Below, piece by piece: positions 5,006-16,345 of a stretch of 64,000 nt of DNA (positions within the stretch are counted from its first letter, which is position 1; each line of letters begins with the position of its first letter). The stretch covers positions 160,001-224,000 of the forward strand of contig JANNXA010000010.1 of the NCBI GenBank assembly GCA_031409275.1. The letters run 5' to 3'. The notes under the pieces are model-generated. The model made no database searches, had not been told where the DNA came from, and saw nothing but the letters and a program-made list of their open reading frames with translations. The position numbers were made by a program, and so were the translations under genes. The DNA is from Planctomycetota bacterium. Its GTDB lineage: Bacteria > Planctomycetota > B15-G4 > SIAN01.

Positions 5006-6150
5006 GCCGATGCCGCGCGCGCCGCGGCCGACTCCCACAAGTCGTGGTAGCGGCCGACGACCTGCGACGCCGAGAAGCGCTCCTCCACGCGAGCGCGGCC
5101 CACCTGCCCCATGGCGCGCGCCTGCTCGGGAGCGGCGAGCCGCTCGACGAGCAGATCGAGCAGTCGCGCCGAATCGCCGATCGGCACGAGGTGTCCCGTG
5201 ACGCCCTCCTCTACTACGTCCGCGATCCCGCCCGCGGCATAGCTCACCACCGGCAACGACGCGGCCATCGCTTCGAGCAGCACGCGACCGAGTCCTTCGA
5301 CCCGCGGTGCGTGCACCATGGCGTCGGCCGCCGCCAGCACCGTGAAGATCTCGTCATGCCAGCCGACGAGGCGCAAGGCGTGCGCGCAGCGAAGCGCCTC
5401 GGCGCGCGCGATGAGCCGCGCCGCAACGCCATCGTGGTCGCGGCCGACCAGGACGAGGACCAGTTCGGGCAGCTGTCGCAGCGCACGCGGAAGCTCTTCG
5501 AGCAGCTGATCCTGGCCCTTGGCGCCGAGCCGCGTCACGACCGACACGGCGACCCGCTGCGACGGCTCGAGCGCGAGCCGGCGCCGCAGTTCGTCGCGAC
5601 GCGCGCGCAGCTCGCTCGCCTGCGCGAGCCGCTGCGGCGTCACGAAGTGGCCGATCACCTCGACCTGCTGACCGGGCGCGTGGTCGTGGACGTGCCGCCG
5701 CAGCGCCTGCGAAAGCGCGACCACGCCGTCGAGCTGCGCGATCGAGCGGCGGCATCGCCAGCGCATCCAGCCATCGCCACCGAAGCGACCGAAACCACGC
5801 ACCGTCGAGAGGCGCGCGACGCCGCGGCGCGCGGCGAGCGTGATCGGCTGCCGACAGGAGGTGAGCGTATTCTGGTTGAAGTGCACCACACCGCGCGCGG
5901 TCGCGAGTCCCGACGCGATGCGGCGCCGCCCGCGCCAGTCGAACGTCCCCTCGATCTGCGCGCGATCGAGGCAGCGAGCGCCCGCCTGCTGCGCACGCCG
6001 GACGACGCCGTCGTACTCGCTCCAGCTTGGCGCGATGAAGCTGGCGGCAACGCGGCGGCGATCGAGCCGTTCGATCAGTTCGACCCAGGAGTACTCGGCG
6101 CCGCCGACATGGTGAGAGTCGAGGAGGAAGAGCAGCGGCAGAGCGTGCAT
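5002..6150 (-). CDS. Glycosyltransferase family 4 (GT-B)
   Basis: N-terminal GGAE; 'EGLGRVLLEAMAASLPVV' E-x7-E motif; TGATG overlap at 6148-6152. Confidence 0.92.
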   Translation of the reverse strand: MHALPLLFLLDSHHVGGAEYSWVELIERLDRRRVAASFIAPSWSEYDGVVRRAQQAGARCLDRAQIEGTFDWRGRRRIASGLATARGVVHFNQNTLTSCRQPITLAARRGVARLSTVRGFGRFGGDGWMRWRCRRSIAQLDGVVALSQALRRHVHDHAPGQQVEVIGHFVTPQRLAQASELRARRDELRRRLALEPSQRVAVSVVTRLGAKGQDQLLEELPRALRQLPELVLVLVGRDHDGVAARLIARAEALRCAHALRLVGWHDEIFTVLAAADAMVHAPRVEGLGRVLLEAMAASLPVVSYAAGGIADVVEEGVTGHLVPIGDSARLLDLLVERLAAPEQARAMGQVGRARVEERFSASQVVGRYHDLWESAAARAASA

Positions 6151-6755
6151 CACCGGACGCCGATCGATTCCGCGGCGACTTCGTGCGCCTGCCGCGAGCG
6201 CCGCCAGCGCCGCCGGCCGGCGATCCAAGCGCAGAGCGCAAGCGCGACGGCGAACGCCGCGACGCGCGGGTGGCCGATCGCCAGCAGGAGCGGCGCCAAC
6301 AAGCCGCGAGCGACCGCGCGCGCCCACGGCCGATCAGCGATCCACGCGGCGAGCGGCGGCGAGGTCCGCTCGTACCACGCCACGAACGCGCGTCCCGCTC
6401 GATGGGGGCGCAAGTGGGCGTCGCGGAACTCCCGTAGCGCCGCCACCTCCGGTTCGAGCGGAGAACCGAACGCCGCTGTCGCGACGAAGCAACGCGAGCC
6501 ACCGCCGCCACCACCGCCACCGCTGCTCGGTGGCCGCGGCGTCACGCTCTTGGTGCCGATGCGACCAGCGGCGTCGTAGTCGTAGGAGATCGTGGTCGCG
6601 CCGTCGTAGGTCAGGCGGGTCAGACGATCGTCGCTGTCGTAGCGATAGGTCTGCACCTGGCGCTGCGGCACGACTTGCGGTGCCGCCAGCAACGTGGCGG
6701 AACAGGTGAACTGAAGCACGAAGGCGGTGAGCTGCATGGTGAATCTCCGGGTCAT
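6150..6755 (-). CDS. Small secreted protein: signal peptide + single YD-repeat unit + Gly linker + CFI-box-CTERM domain
   Basis: 'TYRYDSDDRLTRLTYDGATTISYDYDAAGRI', then 'GGGGGGGSRCFVATAAFGS...LREFRD...GRAFVAWYERTSPPLA', then a hydrophobic segment and a basic RRRWRR tail; ATGA overlap with the RHS stop. Confidence 0.85.
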   Translation of the reverse strand: MTRRFTMQLTAFVLQFTCSATLLAAPQVVPQRQVQTYRYDSDDRLTRLTYDGATTISYDYDAAGRIGTKSVTPRPPSSGGGGGGGGSRCFVATAAFGSPLEPEVAALREFRDAHLRPHRAGRAFVAWYERTSPPLAAWIADRPWARAVARGLLAPLLLAIGHPRVAAFAVALALCAWIAGRRRWRRSRQAHEVAAESIGVR

Positions 6756-9700
6756 TCGTCGCTGCCGAGATGGGCGAACGCCTCGAGGAAGTCGCTGGCG
6801 ACGTCGTCGGCGCGCGCGCGACGCGCCGCGTCCGACACGGCGCCCGGCACCTCGGCGAAACCGACGAACATCTCGACCGCGAGCAGCTTCTCGATCGCAA
6901 GGCGTGCATTGACGCCATCGATCGCAGGGGGCAGCGGCTCGTCCGTCGCGAGACGTGCGACGGAGCGGTCGAGCCAATCGGCGAACGGCCGCCGATCGAA
7001 GCCGAGGAGGCGATCACCGAAGTAGCCCGATGCGCCCGCCAGCAGCGTTGCGGGCGGCGCCGCCGCGCCTCGACCCTGCGCCTCGAGCGGGCCGATCAGC
7101 GTCGACAGATCGAGCGTCTGGCCGCTGTGACAGAGGATGCAGGTCGTGGCGCCGAGCGCCAGATGCATCACGAGGGCGACGTTCTGCCGATTCGCGGCGC
7201 TCGTCAGCACTCCGTCGAGATCGAACCGGCGAGCGAGCGAGCGACCGTCGAAACGCGAGTCGCCGCCGAGCCAGCGGTTGTCGAGTCCGCCGCCGATCGC
7301 CGTCGCGAAGGTGTCGAGGGCGACTGACACCGACTCATCTGCGCGGCCGAGTCGGCCACCCGGCTGCGGGAAGCGGCCGAGTCCATAGGGCGTCGCACCA
7401 AGCTGCGCGAGCCAGCCGAAGTCGCGGATCGGCTGCAACGTGCTGCAGTGAGCGGTGTCCCAAACGCGGTCGCCGAAGGCGACTCCGACACCGAGCGAAA
7501 GGGCGAAGTCGCGACCGCCGAGCGCGAGATCGGCGTACGGGTAGCTCGTGCTCCCACCGAGCGTGCCGAGCAGTTCGCCCATCGGACCCCACGCGTAGGC
7601 GTCGCTGATCGCGCCCGCCGCGTCGGTCTCGAACAGCGTGTTGCCGTTCTCGTCGAAGTGGTAGTACTCGCGCGCCGAAGTGGACAGGTCGATCGACCAG
7701 AGCAGCTCGCCCGTCGGCGTCGCGACGTAGGCGTGCGATGGCACGCCGCCATCGCTCATGAAGCCGAGGCTCGGCCGCGTCGTCGCGTCGTTCCAGGTGA
7801 ACTCGGTCAGCGGCCCGAGGTTCACGCGACCGCTCAACACCCGCCCGAGCCCGTCCCACGTGAAGTCGTAGCTGTCCGTCCCATCGTTCGCGCCGACCAG
7901 CCGGCCCGCGCCATCCCACGAGTAGCTGCGCGTGCCGTCGCCCGTCCGCCGTCCGAGCGCGTCGTAACTCAACGCCGCGTCCTGTCCCGCGGCGTCGAAG
8001 ACGCTCGTCATGACCCCGACGGCGGGCAAGCCGACCACCGGCTGCAGCCGATCTGCGGTGACGATGCGGCCGGCGTCGTCGCGCGTGAATTGCAGATCCG
8101 CCATCGATCCGGACGAGCCGTCGACGCGGAAGCGCGCCAGCCATCCGTCGTTGTCCCAGTCGTAGCGCTCGAGCACGCCGTTGCCGAAGGTGCGGGAGGC
8201 CAGACGGCCGGCGGTGTCCCAGGCGTAGTCGACGCTGCCGACGCCGCCATCGCCGACATGCGCGAGCCGCCCCGCGAGGTCGTACTGGTAGCTCACGATC
8301 AGGCCGGGCTGCAGCGTGGTGGTGAGCAACCTGCCGGCCAGGTCGCGAGTCGACGCGATGCCGTTGCTGATCTCGACGCGGCCGACGTCGTCGCGCGAAA
8401 TCGCGACATCGGTCGCCGACACGATCCGGCCATCGTCGTCGTGCAGCCACTCGATCGTCGTGCCGTCGCTGAAGTTCGCCTCGGCGAGCTCGCCGCGATC
8501 GCTCCATTGCAGGTCGACGTGCGCGGCGCCCGGCAGGTCGACGCGGCTCGGAAGACCGCGCACGTCGAGCGTCGTCAGCCACTCCCGTCCCACCGGGTCG
8601 ATCGCGCCAACGACGTCGCCACGCTCATCGCGGTTGCGCGCGAAGCGGACGCCGCCACCGCTGCCGACGCCGATGGAGCGCCCGCGCGAGTCGCGGTCGA
8701 TCGTCATCGTCTGGCCACCGTTGAGCGTCGCCGCCTCGATCACCGCGCCGCTCTCGTCGCGAGTGAAGCGGGTGCGCGCCCCCTCGCCGCTCGTCGTCTC
8801 CGCCACGCGCCCGTTGCGGTCGCGCGTGAAACGCTGCTCGCGGCCCTCGGCGCTGGTGATTCGCGTGAGCTGGCCGCGGCGATCGCTGGTGAAGGTCGTG
8901 CGCGCGCCATCGGCCGCATCGAAGCTGGCCAGCACATCCTCGTCGTCGTAGCCGAGCGAGTAGTCGAGGCCGCTGCCATCCGTCGCGCCGAGCAGGCGAC
9001 CGCTCGCGTTCCACGCGAGCTGCAACGAGATCCCGCCGCCATCCGTCACCGAGGACGGTCGACCGAGCACATCGAACTGGATCGTGGCGCTGCCGCCCTC
9101 CGGATCGAGGACCGCCCAGACGCGATCCATGCTGTCGTAGCTGAAGCTGAACGTGCGCGAACCCGGCAGCTGCACCGTCTGCAGGTTCGAGTTCATGTCC
9201 CACGCCAGCAGCGTCGTCTCGCCGATCTCGTCAGTGATCGACGTGAGGCGATCGAGGTGGTCCCAGACCGCGTGACGCATCGCGCCGCCCGACAACATCA
9301 CGTCGGTCAAGCGACCGAGCGCGTCGTAGTCAAAGCCGGTCGTCTGCCCCGCCGCATCGACCACGTGGTCGAGCAGCAGATCGGAGCGCCACCCTGCCAG
9401 GCGCACGCCGCCATCGGGCGCGGTCGCCGTCAGCACCTCGCCGCGCGCGCCGTACGTGCGGCTCCACACGCCGCCGCCGAAGTCGGTTCGCGTCAGGACG
9501 TTGCCGGCGGGGTCCCAGGTGAACTGCTCGAACTCGCCACCCGGGGCCGTGATGCGCGTCACGTCATGGAACGTGAAGCCGGACGCGACGCGCGCGCTCC
9601 ACTGCCAGCGCGTCACCGACCCATCGGGTGCCGTGACGCTCGCCGGAAAGCCCGACGCCGAGTCGAACGCAACGGTCGAGCGATCGCCGCGACGATCGAC

Positions 9701-11101
9701 CACTTGCGTGCGGCGCCCCGAGCTGTCGTAGCTGAGGGTGGCGGCCTTGCCGTTCTCGAACTGCAGTCGCGTCAGCCGGCCCGAGGCGTGGGTGTGCTGC
9801 TGCGTCGCGAACGTCGGCTCCGTGATCGTCGTCGTTCCCGCGCCGTCGTCGTAGGCGAACGTCCGCAAGTTGCCGACCGCGTCCTGCTGGCTGACGACGC
9901 GACCGCCGCTGTCGTAGGCCTGGGTCCACGGCACGTTGCCCTCGGGACGGGTGGTCGCCGCCAGCAGCGCGCGCCCCGGCAGCGTCGCCGAGTAGGCGAA
10001 GTGGGTGGCGCCGCCCTCCGCATCGGTGACCGTCGCGAGACGGCCCGATCCGTCGTAGGCGTAGCCGACCGTCCGCGTGCCGTCCGCGAGTTGCTGGAGC
10101 CGGCTGTTCGCGTCGTACGCGAGGGTGAACGCGCGGCCGAGCCCGTCCGCGACGCCGCTCAGGCGACCCGACGTGTAGCTCAGCGTCAGCGCGTTGCCGC
10201 GGCCATCGGCGACCTGCGTCATGCGACCGTTCGAGTCGAAGGTGCGCAGCACGTGCTGCTCGGGATCGCGAAGCACGAAGCCGCCGCTGCTGCCGTCGAT
10301 CAGCGCGTACGGCTGATCGCTGCCTTTGACTCGCGTCCAGGTGGTCGTGAACGGGCTGCGCTCGAAGCGGAGCTGACGGCCATCGGCGGCGGTGATCTCG
10401 ACCGCTTCGCCAAGATCAGCGAGCGACCACTCGAACGAATGGCGCCAGCCCGCGCCAAGTCGCCCGGTGGGCAGGCCGTCGGCGACGAAGCGCGACGAGT
10501 AGCGACGCGCGAAGCGCAACGGCAGCGGGCCGCGCAGCAGGAGGTCGGGGCGCTCCTCGACGAAGAGCTCGCCGGTCGCGGTGGCGACCGGATCGCCCGC
10601 GATGCCGCCAAACGGCAGGTTCCCGAAATTGGACGCGTCCAGCGCCACCGCGACCGAGACGACGTGCGGCGAGTAGGGCGAGCAGTTGTTCTCCTGGCAC
10701 GGCCCGCTCTTGCCGACGTCGGCGCCGACCCAGCAGATCTCGAGCGACGCGTTCTGCGCGACCTGCAGCGACGGCTCGGCCACCACCGCGAAGATCTGGT
10801 CGGCGCGATCGCGCACCGTGATCGTCGTACCGCCGCCGGGCAGCAGCGAACCGTCGCCCTTCGCCATGTCGAGCGCGTAGACCTTGAACACGGCACTGTT
10901 CGTGCTCTTGGCGGTGATGTCGGCCTCGCAGCCGCCAAGGTCGACCACGAAGACGAAGCCGGTGGTGCCCGGCCGCAGTTCGATGGCGTTGGGCGTCACG
11001 TCGTGCGCAGGAAGTTCGCTGGCGCAGAACGCGACGCAAAGCGCAGCCACGCTGGCACGGCAAAGCGAACGCAAGGGTGGCGCGAAGGATCGAAACGGCA
11101 T
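6752..11101 (-). CDS. Secreted RHS/YD-repeat protein with DUF6531-like domain, degenerate RHS core and C-terminal CxxCH
   Basis: Signal-peptide-like N-terminus; 'GDPVATATGEL...PLRFARRYSS...LGAGWRHSF'; dozens of YDxxGR repeats; CILCH at 7127-7141; alternative start at 11128. Confidence 0.9.
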   Translation of the reverse strand: MPFRSFAPPLRSLCRASVAALCVAFCASELPAHDVTPNAIELRPGTTGFVFVVDLGGCEADITAKSTNSAVFKVYALDMAKGDGSLLPGGGTTITVRDRADQIFAVVAEPSLQVAQNASLEICWVGADVGKSGPCQENNCSPYSPHVVSVAVALDASNFGNLPFGGIAGDPVATATGELFVEERPDLLLRGPLPLRFARRYSSRFVADGLPTGRLGAGWRHSFEWSLADLGEAVEITAADGRQLRFERSPFTTTWTRVKGSDQPYALIDGSSGGFVLRDPEQHVLRTFDSNGRMTQVADGRGNALTLSYTSGRLSGVADGLGRAFTLAYDANSRLQQLADGTRTVGYAYDGSGRLATVTDAEGGATHFAYSATLPGRALLAATTRPEGNVPWTQAYDSGGRVVSQQDAVGNLRTFAYDDGAGTTTITEPTFATQQHTHASGRLTRLQFENGKAATLSYDSSGRRTQVVDRRGDRSTVAFDSASGFPASVTAPDGSVTRWQWSARVASGFTFHDVTRITAPGGEFEQFTWDPAGNVLTRTDFGGGVWSRTYGARGEVLTATAPDGGVRLAGWRSDLLLDHVVDAAGQTTGFDYDALGRLTDVMLSGGAMRHAVWDHLDRLTSITDEIGETTLLAWDMNSNLQTVQLPGSRTFSFSYDSMDRVWAVLDPEGGSATIQFDVLGRPSSVTDGGGISLQLAWNASGRLLGATDGSGLDYSLGYDDEDVLASFDAADGARTTFTSDRRGQLTRITSAEGREQRFTRDRNGRVAETTSGEGARTRFTRDESGAVIEAATLNGGQTMTIDRDSRGRSIGVGSGGGVRFARNRDERGDVVGAIDPVGREWLTTLDVRGLPSRVDLPGAAHVDLQWSDRGELAEANFSDGTTIEWLHDDDGRIVSATDVAISRDDVGRVEISNGIASTRDLAGRLLTTTLQPGLIVSYQYDLAGRLAHVGDGGVGSVDYAWDTAGRLASRTFGNGVLERYDWDNDGWLARFRVDGSSGSMADLQFTRDDAGRIVTADRLQPVVGLPAVGVMTSVFDAAGQDAALSYDALGRRTGDGTRSYSWDGAGRLVGANDGTDSYDFTWDGLGRVLSGRVNLGPLTEFTWNDATTRPSLGFMSDGGVPSHAYVATPTGELLWSIDLSTSAREYYHFDENGNTLFETDAAGAISDAYAWGPMGELLGTLGGSTSYPYADLALGGRDFALSLGVGVAFGDRVWDTAHCSTLQPIRDFGWLAQLGATPYGLGRFPQPGGRLGRADESVSVALDTFATAIGGGLDNRWLGGDSRFDGRSLARRFDLDGVLTSAANRQNVALVMHLALGATTCILCHSGQTLDLSTLIGPLEAQGRGAAAPPATLLAGASGYFGDRLLGFDRRPFADWLDRSVARLATDEPLPPAIDGVNARLAIEKLLAVEMFVGFAEVPGAVSDAARRARADDVASDFLEAFAHLGSDE

Positions 11102-11210: not shown

Positions 11211-11797
11211 TCAGCCGCCGTGGCCGCGCCGCGCGATCTCGAAGCAATCACGAAAGCGGGCCAGCGCGCGCTGCCGCGCCTTCTCGGCGGCGTCGCGACC
11301 GATCGACCACTGCGCCGCCTGCTCGGCGACGTCGAGGCCAGCGCAGATCCCCTCCACCAGCGCGCGATCGCGGGGCAGAAGCATGTCGAGCGCCAGCGCG
11401 GCCAGCGAGAGCTGCTCGCGACGCACGGCGAACGTGGACGGACCGGTCACCGAGGCCGCGAGCTCGCGAATCGCGCCGAGGTCGGCGCTGTCGTGCGCGC
11501 CGCCGGCGAGCCGCAGCACCTCACCGCCACGCCGCTTCAGCGCCAGCCAGTGGTCGCGACGATCGGCGAGCCAGCGCTCGCCGGCGGTGAAGAGCCAGGC
11601 GCGCTGCGCGGCCTCGTTGCCTTCGCTCGGGCGCGCGTCGCGTTCGAGCAGGTGCGCGCAGATCCCCTGCGCGAGATCGTCCGCTGTCTCGAGCCGCAAC
11701 AGCAGCCGGCCGGCGCGACGACGGACGAAGTCGGACAGGAGCTCGAGCTCCTCGCCGAGCCAGCCTCCGAGGTCGATGCGCGCATCGCGCGGCTGAC

Positions 11798-11801
<4 letters not shown>
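11211..11801 (-). CDS. ECF-type RNA polymerase sigma factor (kinase-associated, planctomycete-like)
   Basis: Region 2-like 'ADDLAQ...AWLF'; 'TGPST' linker; region 4-like 'LLPRDRALV...VAEQA...AAEKARQRAL'; ATGA overlap with the kinase stop. Confidence 0.8.
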
Positions 11802-14839
<3,038 letters not shown>

Positions 14840-14870: not shown

Positions 14871-15923
14871 CTACCAGCGCAGCAGCAGCAGTTCCGAGCA
14901 GAAACCGGGTCCCATCGCCAGCATCACGCCGAGCTTGCCGGGCAACGGGCGGCGCCGCAGCAGCGTCTGCTCGAGGATCAGCAGCACCGAGGCGCTCGAC
15001 AGGTTTCCGACCTTTTTCAGGCTCTCCCACGAGAGCGCGAGATCCTCGTCCGTCACGCCGAGCGAGTCGCGCGCTCCTTCGAGCACCTTGGGGCCGCCCG
15101 GATGGCAGACCCACGACGCGATGTCGCGCCGCGTCAGCTTCAGGTCGGCGAGGAACGCGTCGACGTCGGGGCCGAGGCGCTCGCGCGCGACCTTCGGCAC
15201 CGCCGAGGAGAGGACGAGGCTGAACCCCTTCTCGCTGATGCGCCAGCCCATCACCTCTTCGGTGTCGGGGTAGAAGACCGAGCGCGTCGCGACGATGGTC
15301 GGGCCGTTCGCGGCGCGGTCGGCGCCGACCACGATCGCGCAACTCGCGCCGTCGCCGAAGAGGCCGCTCGCGATCACGTTGGCGATGCCGGTGTCGCCGC
15401 GCTGCACCGTGAGCGAACAGAGCTCGACGCTCACCACCGCCACCACGGCGCGCGGATCGCCGCGCACGAAATCGGCGGCGCGCGCGACCGCGGCTGCGCC
15501 GGCGACGCAACCGAGCCCGAACAGCGGCATGCGCTTCACGTCGCGGCGCAGCCCCATGCGATTGACCAGGCGGGCGTCGATCGAAGGACTCGCCAGGCCG
15601 GTCACGGTGGTGAAGACGATCGCATCGACGTCCTGCACCGCGAGGCCGGCGCGTTCGAGTGCGAGCGTCAACGCGCGCTGCGCGAGGTCGGTGGCGGCCG
15701 AGATCCAGGCGTCGTTGAAATCGCCGAAGGTCGTGAACTCGGCGTAGCGCTCGAGCGGGAAGGCGAGGTGGCGGCCGTCGACCTGCACGTGATCGTGCAG
15801 CGCGTCGAGGCGGCGCAGCACGGCCGGCGCATCGCGCCAGACCACCTCCCGCAGGTAGCGCGTGAGCGTCGCCTGATCGTAGTAGTGAACCGGCAGGGCG
15901 CTGGCGACGGCGGCGATCTTCAC
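14871..15923 (-). CDS. Type III polyketide synthase (chalcone/stilbene synthase family)
   Basis: Catalytic triad contexts FGLGCVAG, CHPGGPK, GNLSSAS; LFGDGA; AMGPGFCSE. Confidence 0.93.
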   Translation of the reverse strand: MKIAAVASALPVHYYDQATLTRYLREVVWRDAPAVLRRLDALHDHVQVDGRHLAFPLERYAEFTTFGDFNDAWISAATDLAQRALTLALERAGLAVQDVDAIVFTTVTGLASPSIDARLVNRMGLRRDVKRMPLFGLGCVAGAAAVARAADFVRGDPRAVVAVVSVELCSLTVQRGDTGIANVIASGLFGDGASCAIVVGADRAANGPTIVATRSVFYPDTEEVMGWRISEKGFSLVLSSAVPKVARERLGPDVDAFLADLKLTRRDIASWVCHPGGPKVLEGARDSLGVTDEDLALSWESLKKVGNLSSASVLLILEQTLLRRRPLPGKLGVMLAMGPGFCSELLLLRW

Positions 15924-15957
15924 AGCGAAGCGAACTCCATCGGGGACATGACGGCGA

Positions 15958-16345
15958 TCATTCGAGCAAGCTGCGACGCAGGGCCAGCCGACCAACCTCG
16001 ATCTCGAGCTGCAGAAAGCCGGGCGCGGCGCGCAAAGGGACCGGCTCCTGATCGCCGAGATCGAGCGCCTCGTCGATGATGCGCCAGCGACCCGAGAGCG
16101 TCTGGAACTGCGGCGACGACTCGCCCTGCACCAGAGCCGCGCCGGTGTACTCGCCGACCGCACGGGTACGCAGCTCGATCCACAACGTGACCGTCGGGTC
16201 GACCGAGATCACGCGGATCGTCAACTTGCCCGACGCTCGACCGTTCACCGTCTGCTACGTCGAATCGACAACGGCCTCGTCGAAGCCGCTCCACTCGAAC
16301 ACGATCGGGCGATGGGCAGCGACGTCGACGTGCTCGCGGGGCGTT
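15958..16345 (-). pseudogene. Possible gene remnant interrupted by an in-frame TAG
   Basis: Protein-like 'EHVDVAAHRPIVFEWSGFDEAVVDST*QTVNGRASGKLTIRVISVD...' continues in the same frame across TAG 16255-16257; no clear start. Confidence 0.3.

Follow-up and report, generated by a model that had tools for sequence, protein, structure and literature searches.

A two-gene RHS cage from a planctomycete with a wall piece probably supplied by a small neighbouring protein

Solved Rhs effectors of type VI secretion (T6SS; 8QJA/8QJD, RhsA 7Q97, Tse5 8CP6, Rhs1 7PQ5) combine a DUF6531 plug, a YD-repeat spiral and a core plug, a plan also found in the protein described here. Rhs toxins are reported to be cut at aspartate motifs ahead of the tail, the motif PxxxxDPxG carrying the catalytic aspartate (PMC8636562), and metazoan teneurins are described as keeping their tail uncleaved (PMC13018210). 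Some RHS toxins are listed as Sec-exported (PMC3482391), and the route by which cargo gets out of an RHS/YD shell is presented as an open question (10.1101/2024.02.26.582050). Here we analyse a pair of adjacent genes in a 64,000-nucleotide stretch (the window) of a Planctomycetota bacterium genome (GenBank assembly GCA_031409275.1, contig JANNXA010000010.1, positions 160,001 to 224,000). One encodes a large RHS protein and the other a small YD-containing partner. We consider it probable that the RHS wall lacks a four-strand piece encoded next door, and that the two proteins, both likely exported by Sec, assemble by strand complementation into a closed cage, likely held at the envelope through the CFI-box-CTERM domain of the partner. 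The two genes and their parts, numbered in amino acids (aa) within each protein, are as follows.

6752..11101, minus strand: RHS/YD cage protein, short-wall form, 1449 aa (Pfam and NCBIfam matches, AlphaFold2 model)
11006..11101, minus strand: RHS protein, predicted Sec signal peptide, aa 1-32 (sequence; conserved mature start of homologues)
10637..11005, minus strand: RHS protein, Ig-like N-terminal domain with four invariant Cys, aa 33-155 (alignment, AlphaFold2, VIA)
10364..10597, minus strand: RHS protein, DUF6531, the N-terminal plug region, aa 169-246 (Pfam)
7730..10363, minus strand: RHS protein, YD-repeat spiral shell, aa 247-1124 (Pfam, AlphaFold2, structure comparison)
8000..8068, minus strand: RHS protein, wall gap (last strand aa 1012-1019, Pro-containing linker aa 1020-1034), predicted partner docking site (alignment, AlphaFold2, complex model)
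7346..7729, minus strand: RHS protein, degenerate Rhs-associated core with neither aspartate motif (profile E 3.9e-9 in its own genome)
6755..7345, minus strand: RHS protein, C-terminal extension of about 197 aa without a Pfam family (sequence, Pfam)
7127-7141, minus strand: CxxCH in the RHS tail (sequence)
6150..6755, minus strand: partner gene, start at 6755 or 6737, 201 or 195 aa (Pfam/NCBIfam; database protein)
6666..6755, minus strand: partner, predicted signal peptide (sequence; hydrophobic leader in homologues)
6540..6665, minus strand: partner, four-strand YD unit (the wall patch), aa 31-72 (Pfam, profile alignment, complex model)
6498..6521, minus strand: partner, poly-Gly linker of eight glycines (sequence)
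6288..6491, minus strand: partner, CFI-box-CTERM domain, aa 89-156 (NF041770, 89.6 bits against a cut-off of 40)
6192..6269, minus strand: partner, predicted transmembrane helix and Arg-rich tail (sequence)

The RHS protein carries 17 stretches of RHS_repeat (Pfam, E 3.7e-67) and, together with the partner, accounts for all 11 RHS-repeat matches of its own genome. With a YD spiral shell closed by N- and C-terminal plugs, it has the feature set of RHS/YD-repeat containers. An earlier reading of the locus, made from the sequence alone (the sequence-only reading), had correctly recognized most of this layout. The Sec-like signal peptide that it assigned to the RHS protein is backed by the sequence and by a mature start, A-H-D, conserved in 11 aligned homologues. 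The partner layout that it gave, with signal peptide, one YD unit, poly-Gly linker, CFI-box-CTERM domain and transmembrane/basic tail, agrees with Pfam, NCBIfam and the sequence, the single RHS_repeat/YD match falling at aa 39-73. Its "Cys-rich" N-terminal domain is present but was overstated as such, with four invariant cysteines in about 125 aa and, from alignment and AlphaFold2, a predicted Ig-like beta-sandwich fold resembling the S-layer protein SbsC (VIA Z 10.9, root-mean-square deviation (rmsd) 1.7, 87 aligned) and MSP/PapD-type folds (VIA Z ~10). The RHS stop does overlap the partner start in an ATGA (6755-6752), although that start is ambiguous: the database protein uses the next Met, at 6737 (GGAG upstream), and the start at 6755 adds a basic n-region. 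The absence of PAAR and VgrG likewise held, neither family matching the RHS protein in Pfam or NCBIfam, and PF04717 had no match in the whole genome (93% complete); a T6SS effector was rejected on this absence.

Comparison with one-chain Rhs proteins located a gap in the wall. In these proteins four strands (Y-x-Y-D, G-R-L, Y-x-Y-D, G-N) stand shortly ahead of the core, where the clade studied here has a short proline-containing linker, and the wall of the window RHS protein is ~40 residues shorter than theirs at this single site (aa ~1019-1034). Short-wall loci have 55-68 aa between a conserved NG turn and the strand past the linker, against 90-98 aa in long-form loci with a correctly read landmark; in a separate, independent collection of 120 RHS proteins, 32 of the 37 that were measurable have 96-111 aa. 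The regular expression used as landmark left 77 of 114 core-bearing proteins unmeasured in one set and 104 of 119 in a second one. It also called short five proteins that hold the unit by eye; a version adapted to the clade gave 50-73 aa in 87 of 120 homologues. When the clade was aligned by profile (hhalign) with 17 one-chain Rhs proteins, 33 deleted columns fell at template positions ~80-130, and the partner profile, aligned to the same kind of template, had its top match at positions 77-126, the deleted stretch. Among PDB sequences, the partner profile fitted best at this C-terminal unit for Tse5 and Tse15 (positions judged by eye) and elsewhere in others; phmmer against the PDB did not fix the repeat register, and a mixed MAFFT alignment scattered partner units over several registers.

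The short wall and the separate unit occur together across genomes, which is what the neighbourhood check proposed in the sequence-only reading was to look for. A scan of genome contigs with the RHS alignment yielded 29 loci, 24 with a scorable wall, four cut before the core and one of another architecture; the YD-unit profile was built from database proteins, just one of them from these loci. A signal peptide followed by a single YD unit was found in 20 of the 24 scorable short-wall loci; in 17 it is a gene of its own, lying downstream in 15 and upstream in 2, and in three it is an N-terminal fusion. These loci span Planctomycetota, KSB1, Desulfobacterales, Polyangiaceae, Bryobacteraceae, Rokubacteria, Verrucomicrobiota and others. 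As a control, 40 regions were taken by open reading frame (ORF) size and flank among 150 of 1016 core matches in a search of 401 Planctomycetota genomes; four regions had no scorable ORF, and 40 scorable ORFs were obtained. The single short-wall ORF among them (L141, the partner match of which had been seen beforehand) has a partner, and the unit is absent beside all 39 others (six with one short flank). Conversely, 14 of 19 signal-plus-YD genes outside the training set adjoin a short-wall RHS gene (10 called by eye) and none a long-wall one; a further small-ORF match, L185, failed the signal-peptide filter and has no RHS gene nearby. The system is patchy, with the small gene in 2 of 42 genomes of the order and any match at E 1e-11 in at least 8, at least 1 and at least 9 genomes of three other phyla (121 genomes in all), and a tblastn search of plasmids gave distant RHS matches only. 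The unit is also fused behind a signal peptide in 6 of 120 RHS homologues. Some ORFs (L102, L110, L111, P0058, P0145 and P0158) are apparent polyproteins in which a signal peptide and a YD unit are followed by a sorting tag that has transmembrane and basic stretches, a second signal-like peptide and then the cage, all in one frame; to judge from their sequences, both chains could come from one gene.

What follows the YD unit is swappable: CFI-box-CTERM (5), type IX secretion system (T9SS) type A (2), choice-of-anchor U, MYXO-CTERM (2), a PEP-CTERM-like tag below cut-off, other domains, or nothing (L105, L190). CFI-box, T9SS type A, choice-of-anchor U and MYXO-CTERM tags were above cut-off, and the names PEP-CTERM-like and dockerin-like are ones that we presume to apply. 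The anchoring role of CFI-box-CTERM is likely by analogy; the term itself was not found in the literature searched. A second protein of the same genome, of secreted type (contig C44, L002:1306-3186, minus strand), has a poly-Gly stretch, a degenerate CFI box, a transmembrane helix and a basic tail behind an unrelated large passenger. Since tag-less partners exist, the tether that the sequence-only reading assigned to the partner would be optional, and sealing would be its core role. The partner gene might instead be what remains of an RHS fission, or stand beside the RHS gene by chance and without a functional link, given that fragments are common at RHS loci (L197) and that YD units weakly match any RHS repeat, but we regard this as highly improbable. 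The signal peptide is intact, the tags are lineage-specific and the adjacency extends over several phyla, observations on which chance adjacency was rejected. Moreover, a metagenome scan with the partner alignment, which keyed on the CFI motif alone, supplied 80 generic CFI-box loci as a control; the YD unit was in none of their CFI ORFs, and an RHS gene was near one.

Structure models agree with the gap inferred from alignment. From a single sequence, AlphaFold2 (AF2) reached a predicted local distance difference test (pLDDT) of only 33.6 for the RHS protein; with a 66-row alignment, aa 33-1232 were predicted as a confident cage (pLDDT 92.9, predicted template modelling score 0.82) with a 15-residue coil and a dip in confidence at aa 1020-1034. 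This cage model matches 8QJA (Foldseek E 1.9e-61) and T6SS Rhs cores (VIA Z 27, rmsd 3.3, 839 aligned), and also teneurin-like proteins at VIA Z 29.1 but rmsd 24; the TEN_YD-shell profile scored 17 bits on the RHS protein, far below its cut-off of 50. The fold is thus no nearer to teneurin-like proteins than to T6SS Rhs cores. The surface location and "teneurin-like" function proposed in the sequence-only reading are conjectural. In complex models that pair RHS aa 287-1232 and the 48-residue partner unit, the score was 0.76 in three runs and 0.00 for the best of three controls; when this score was calibrated, 116 of 157 solved complexes attained the mark, as did 2 of 215 mismatched pairs. The runs share at least 90% of contacts, with partner pLDDT of 84-85 and never under 83. 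The modelled interface comprises aa 1012-1035 plus 775, 792-797 and 814-818 of the RHS protein, the artificial cut at aa 287 not being involved, and the unit is placed antiparallel between two RHS strands, its first strand on aa 1013-1019 and its fourth on aa 1028-1031. What these models suggest lies in the docking position, which had been forecast from sequence before modelling, rather than in the score, because a split piece can score via its likeness to solved cages. The strand donation that the sequence-only reading had proposed is thus supported by the aligned wall deletion, the conserved pairing and fusions and the complex model, which places the unit at the deletion. The donation site differs, being an internal wall gap instead of a free, open edge.

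Several observations weigh against a wall completed in trans. The complex pass may stem from likeness to solved one-chain cages, and the alignments were self-made. In a solved VgrG-Rhs core, a relative's four strands are reported to be replaced by a loop, with the container described as similar (10.1101/2024.02.26.582050), and this loop region may adjoin or overlap the gap site. In the canonical wall the partner profile has a second match, to a later repeat, that scores level with the best one (52.2 vs 52.6). Four short-wall loci are without the unit: in two the contig ends within 330 nt of the RHS gene, and L106 and L113 are true local misses, lacking a partner over ~2 kb upstream and ~5 kb downstream; the L106 genome gave no match anywhere. 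The unit of L107 is truncated, and of the 19 partner genes three have no RHS gene in the fetched DNA and two an unscorable one. The loci are related metagenome-assembled genomes and not independent samples, hence no p-value is given. A short-wall cage that closes itself with its linker, the partner merely docking as accessory tether or folding aid, would account for the partnerless loci, for the monomer model being confident without a partner and for the reported variation between four strands and a loop in solved Rhs cores (10.1101/2024.02.26.582050). We nevertheless consider such a cage unlikely, as a pure tether leaves the tag-less partners unexplained, the size and motif of the unit fit the deletion, and the model inserts the unit between two RHS strands. 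Taken together, the two-gene RHS cage is real and conserved, and its wall is likely completed in trans.

Both aspartate motifs are absent from the window RHS protein and eight close relatives. Among 120 homologues, both motifs were found by regular expression in 80 and neither in 21, some of which are truncated or missed by the expression. Because these 80 homologues keep both motifs, the loss of cleavage is, at the level of sequence, derived and particular to a small subclade, not a property of the two-part system, so that the non-cleaving cage of the sequence-only reading holds for the window protein and its eight relatives but not for the system. None of 29 tails reached the Pfam cut-off for a toxin domain, one giving a weak Ntox10 match, and the window tail had no Pfam or PADLOC match and an uninformative best Atlas score of 0.85. 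A CxxCH is present in five of five tails of the non-cleaving subclade, which are otherwise divergent (~1e-4 per tail by composition, the five being related); the genome has a cytochrome c assembly gene, and the tails have no cytochrome Pfam match. Other tails vary. That of L098 holds a secretin-family segment (9628-10371; Pfam Secretin, 69 bits against a cut-off of 27.5), and P0046, P0047, P0048-P0050, L095 and L097 end similarly, some with intact cleavage motifs. Short tandem repeats with a unit of about 8 residues close the tails of P0113, P0125, P0127, P0128, P0134 and P0139. P0084 has an Hcp (PF05638) domain listed, and its core is degenerate, with short repeats.

The partner occupies the position of an immunity gene, and an unusual toxin system might be envisaged, with a tail that is a toxin of unrecognised kind and an exported partner that, by sealing the cage, protects the producer as a functional immunity factor. 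Variable tails, the 80 homologues with intact motifs and the toxins said to be carried by Sec-exported teneurin-like proteins (PMC13018210) would fit this scheme, which we nonetheless hold to be quite improbable: the window copy lacks both aspartate motifs, the tails show no toxin family at the Pfam cut-off, and the partner stays conserved where tails vary. An immunity protein was rejected for the partner on that conservation, on its occurrence upstream of or N-terminally fused to the cage, and on the lack of any immunity family match in Pfam or NCBIfam, a check also proposed in the sequence-only reading. No cognate immunity gene lies directly downstream of the RHS gene, where the YD/CFI-box gene is followed by a glycosyltransferase family 4 (GT4) gene. 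On the features tested, the window RHS protein is outside the Rhs toxin-immunity class, as that reading had proposed.

Upstream on the same strand are two genes with a possible regulatory role.

11211..11801, minus strand: sigma factor of extracytoplasmic function (ECF) type (Pfam/NCBIfam below cut-offs; conserved upstream in 4/5 related CFI-box loci)
11798..14839, minus strand: Ser/Thr kinase with a C-terminal FGE-sulfatase-like domain (Pfam; upstream in the same four loci)

The kinase and ECF sigma pair precedes the RHS gene in four CFI-box loci with degenerate cores (L094-L097) and not in L098, the core of which is intact. Upstream of the kinase there is a type III polyketide synthase gene (14871-16163), which is also conserved in a same-genus locus. 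On the other side, the partner stop overlaps the start of the GT4 glycosyltransferase gene (window 6150-5002), which is no conserved neighbour across related loci.

In the proposed assembly, both chains would be exported by Sec, and the partner would be anchored through its transmembrane tail or sorted onward. Its four strands would complete the cage wall, and its tag would fix where the cage sits. The tail would remain uncleaved and attached, either inside the cage or leaving it near the patch, and loss of the patch would open and release the cage at once. By analogy with the PknS-EcfK pair described in PMC13147305, the upstream kinase and sigma factor may control expression. Beyond this, we put forward tentatively, and with more doubt than belief, that two-part RHS cages form a class, widespread and so far undescribed, whose four-strand hatch, sorted to the envelope, anchors and seals the cage, and the detachment of which opens the wall and gives cargo an exit; here, with cleavage lost and a haem-binding CxxCH tail under kinase/ECF control, the cage would be a tethered redox or sensing device and no weapon. 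A separately encoded wall patch would offer a direct handle on cargo exit, by comparing cages with and without it. It would also give one class of small "YD repeat-containing" proteins an explanation, as pieces of a wall, and provide a case of a large exported protein anchored in trans by any sorting tag of the lineage, while CxxCH or secretin-like tails would point to non-toxin roles of RHS cages.

Among known systems, an RHS cage with a wall piece in trans was not found in the literature searched, most subscription papers lying outside the search, and a search for YD repeats plus a CTERM tag surfaced just an Akkermansia proteome. Relative to T6SS Rhs effectors, the window RHS protein has a signal peptide and an Ig-like domain in place of PAAR/VgrG, its wall piece is on a second gene, aspartate motifs are absent, and no toxin tail or immunity gene was recognised. 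Bacterial teneurin-like proteins and teneurins are, as here, described as exported YD shells with predicted envelope attachment (PMC13018210); the bacterial proteins cleave and have immunity genes, whereas the window RHS protein has a single Ig-like domain followed by DUF6531, with no FN-plug or NHL ahead of the shell, and its anchor is in trans. In Bdellovibrio, the small exported Bd0108 is reported to bind the adjoining exported RHS-repeat protein Bd0109 in a non-toxin role (PMC3818213); compared by description only, Bd0109 is ~550 aa and no full cage, and the account given there, as far as available, reports no YD unit or sorting tag for Bd0108. The partner shares its Gly linker, CFI box, transmembrane helix and basic tail with CFI-box-CTERM proteins (NF041770) and differs from these at large in having a single YD unit as passenger, seen in 0/80 generic loci. 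In TcB-TcC, the BC component within ABC toxin complexes, the YD shell is likewise described as formed by two polypeptides (10.1101/2024.02.26.582050). The window partner, with 195-201 aa, one YD unit and no SpvB or propeller, differs from the Tc components (no search for TcA was made), and, whereas TcB and TcC are two large halves joined end to end, the window pair is predicted to complete its shell with a ~40-residue internal patch from a small anchored protein.

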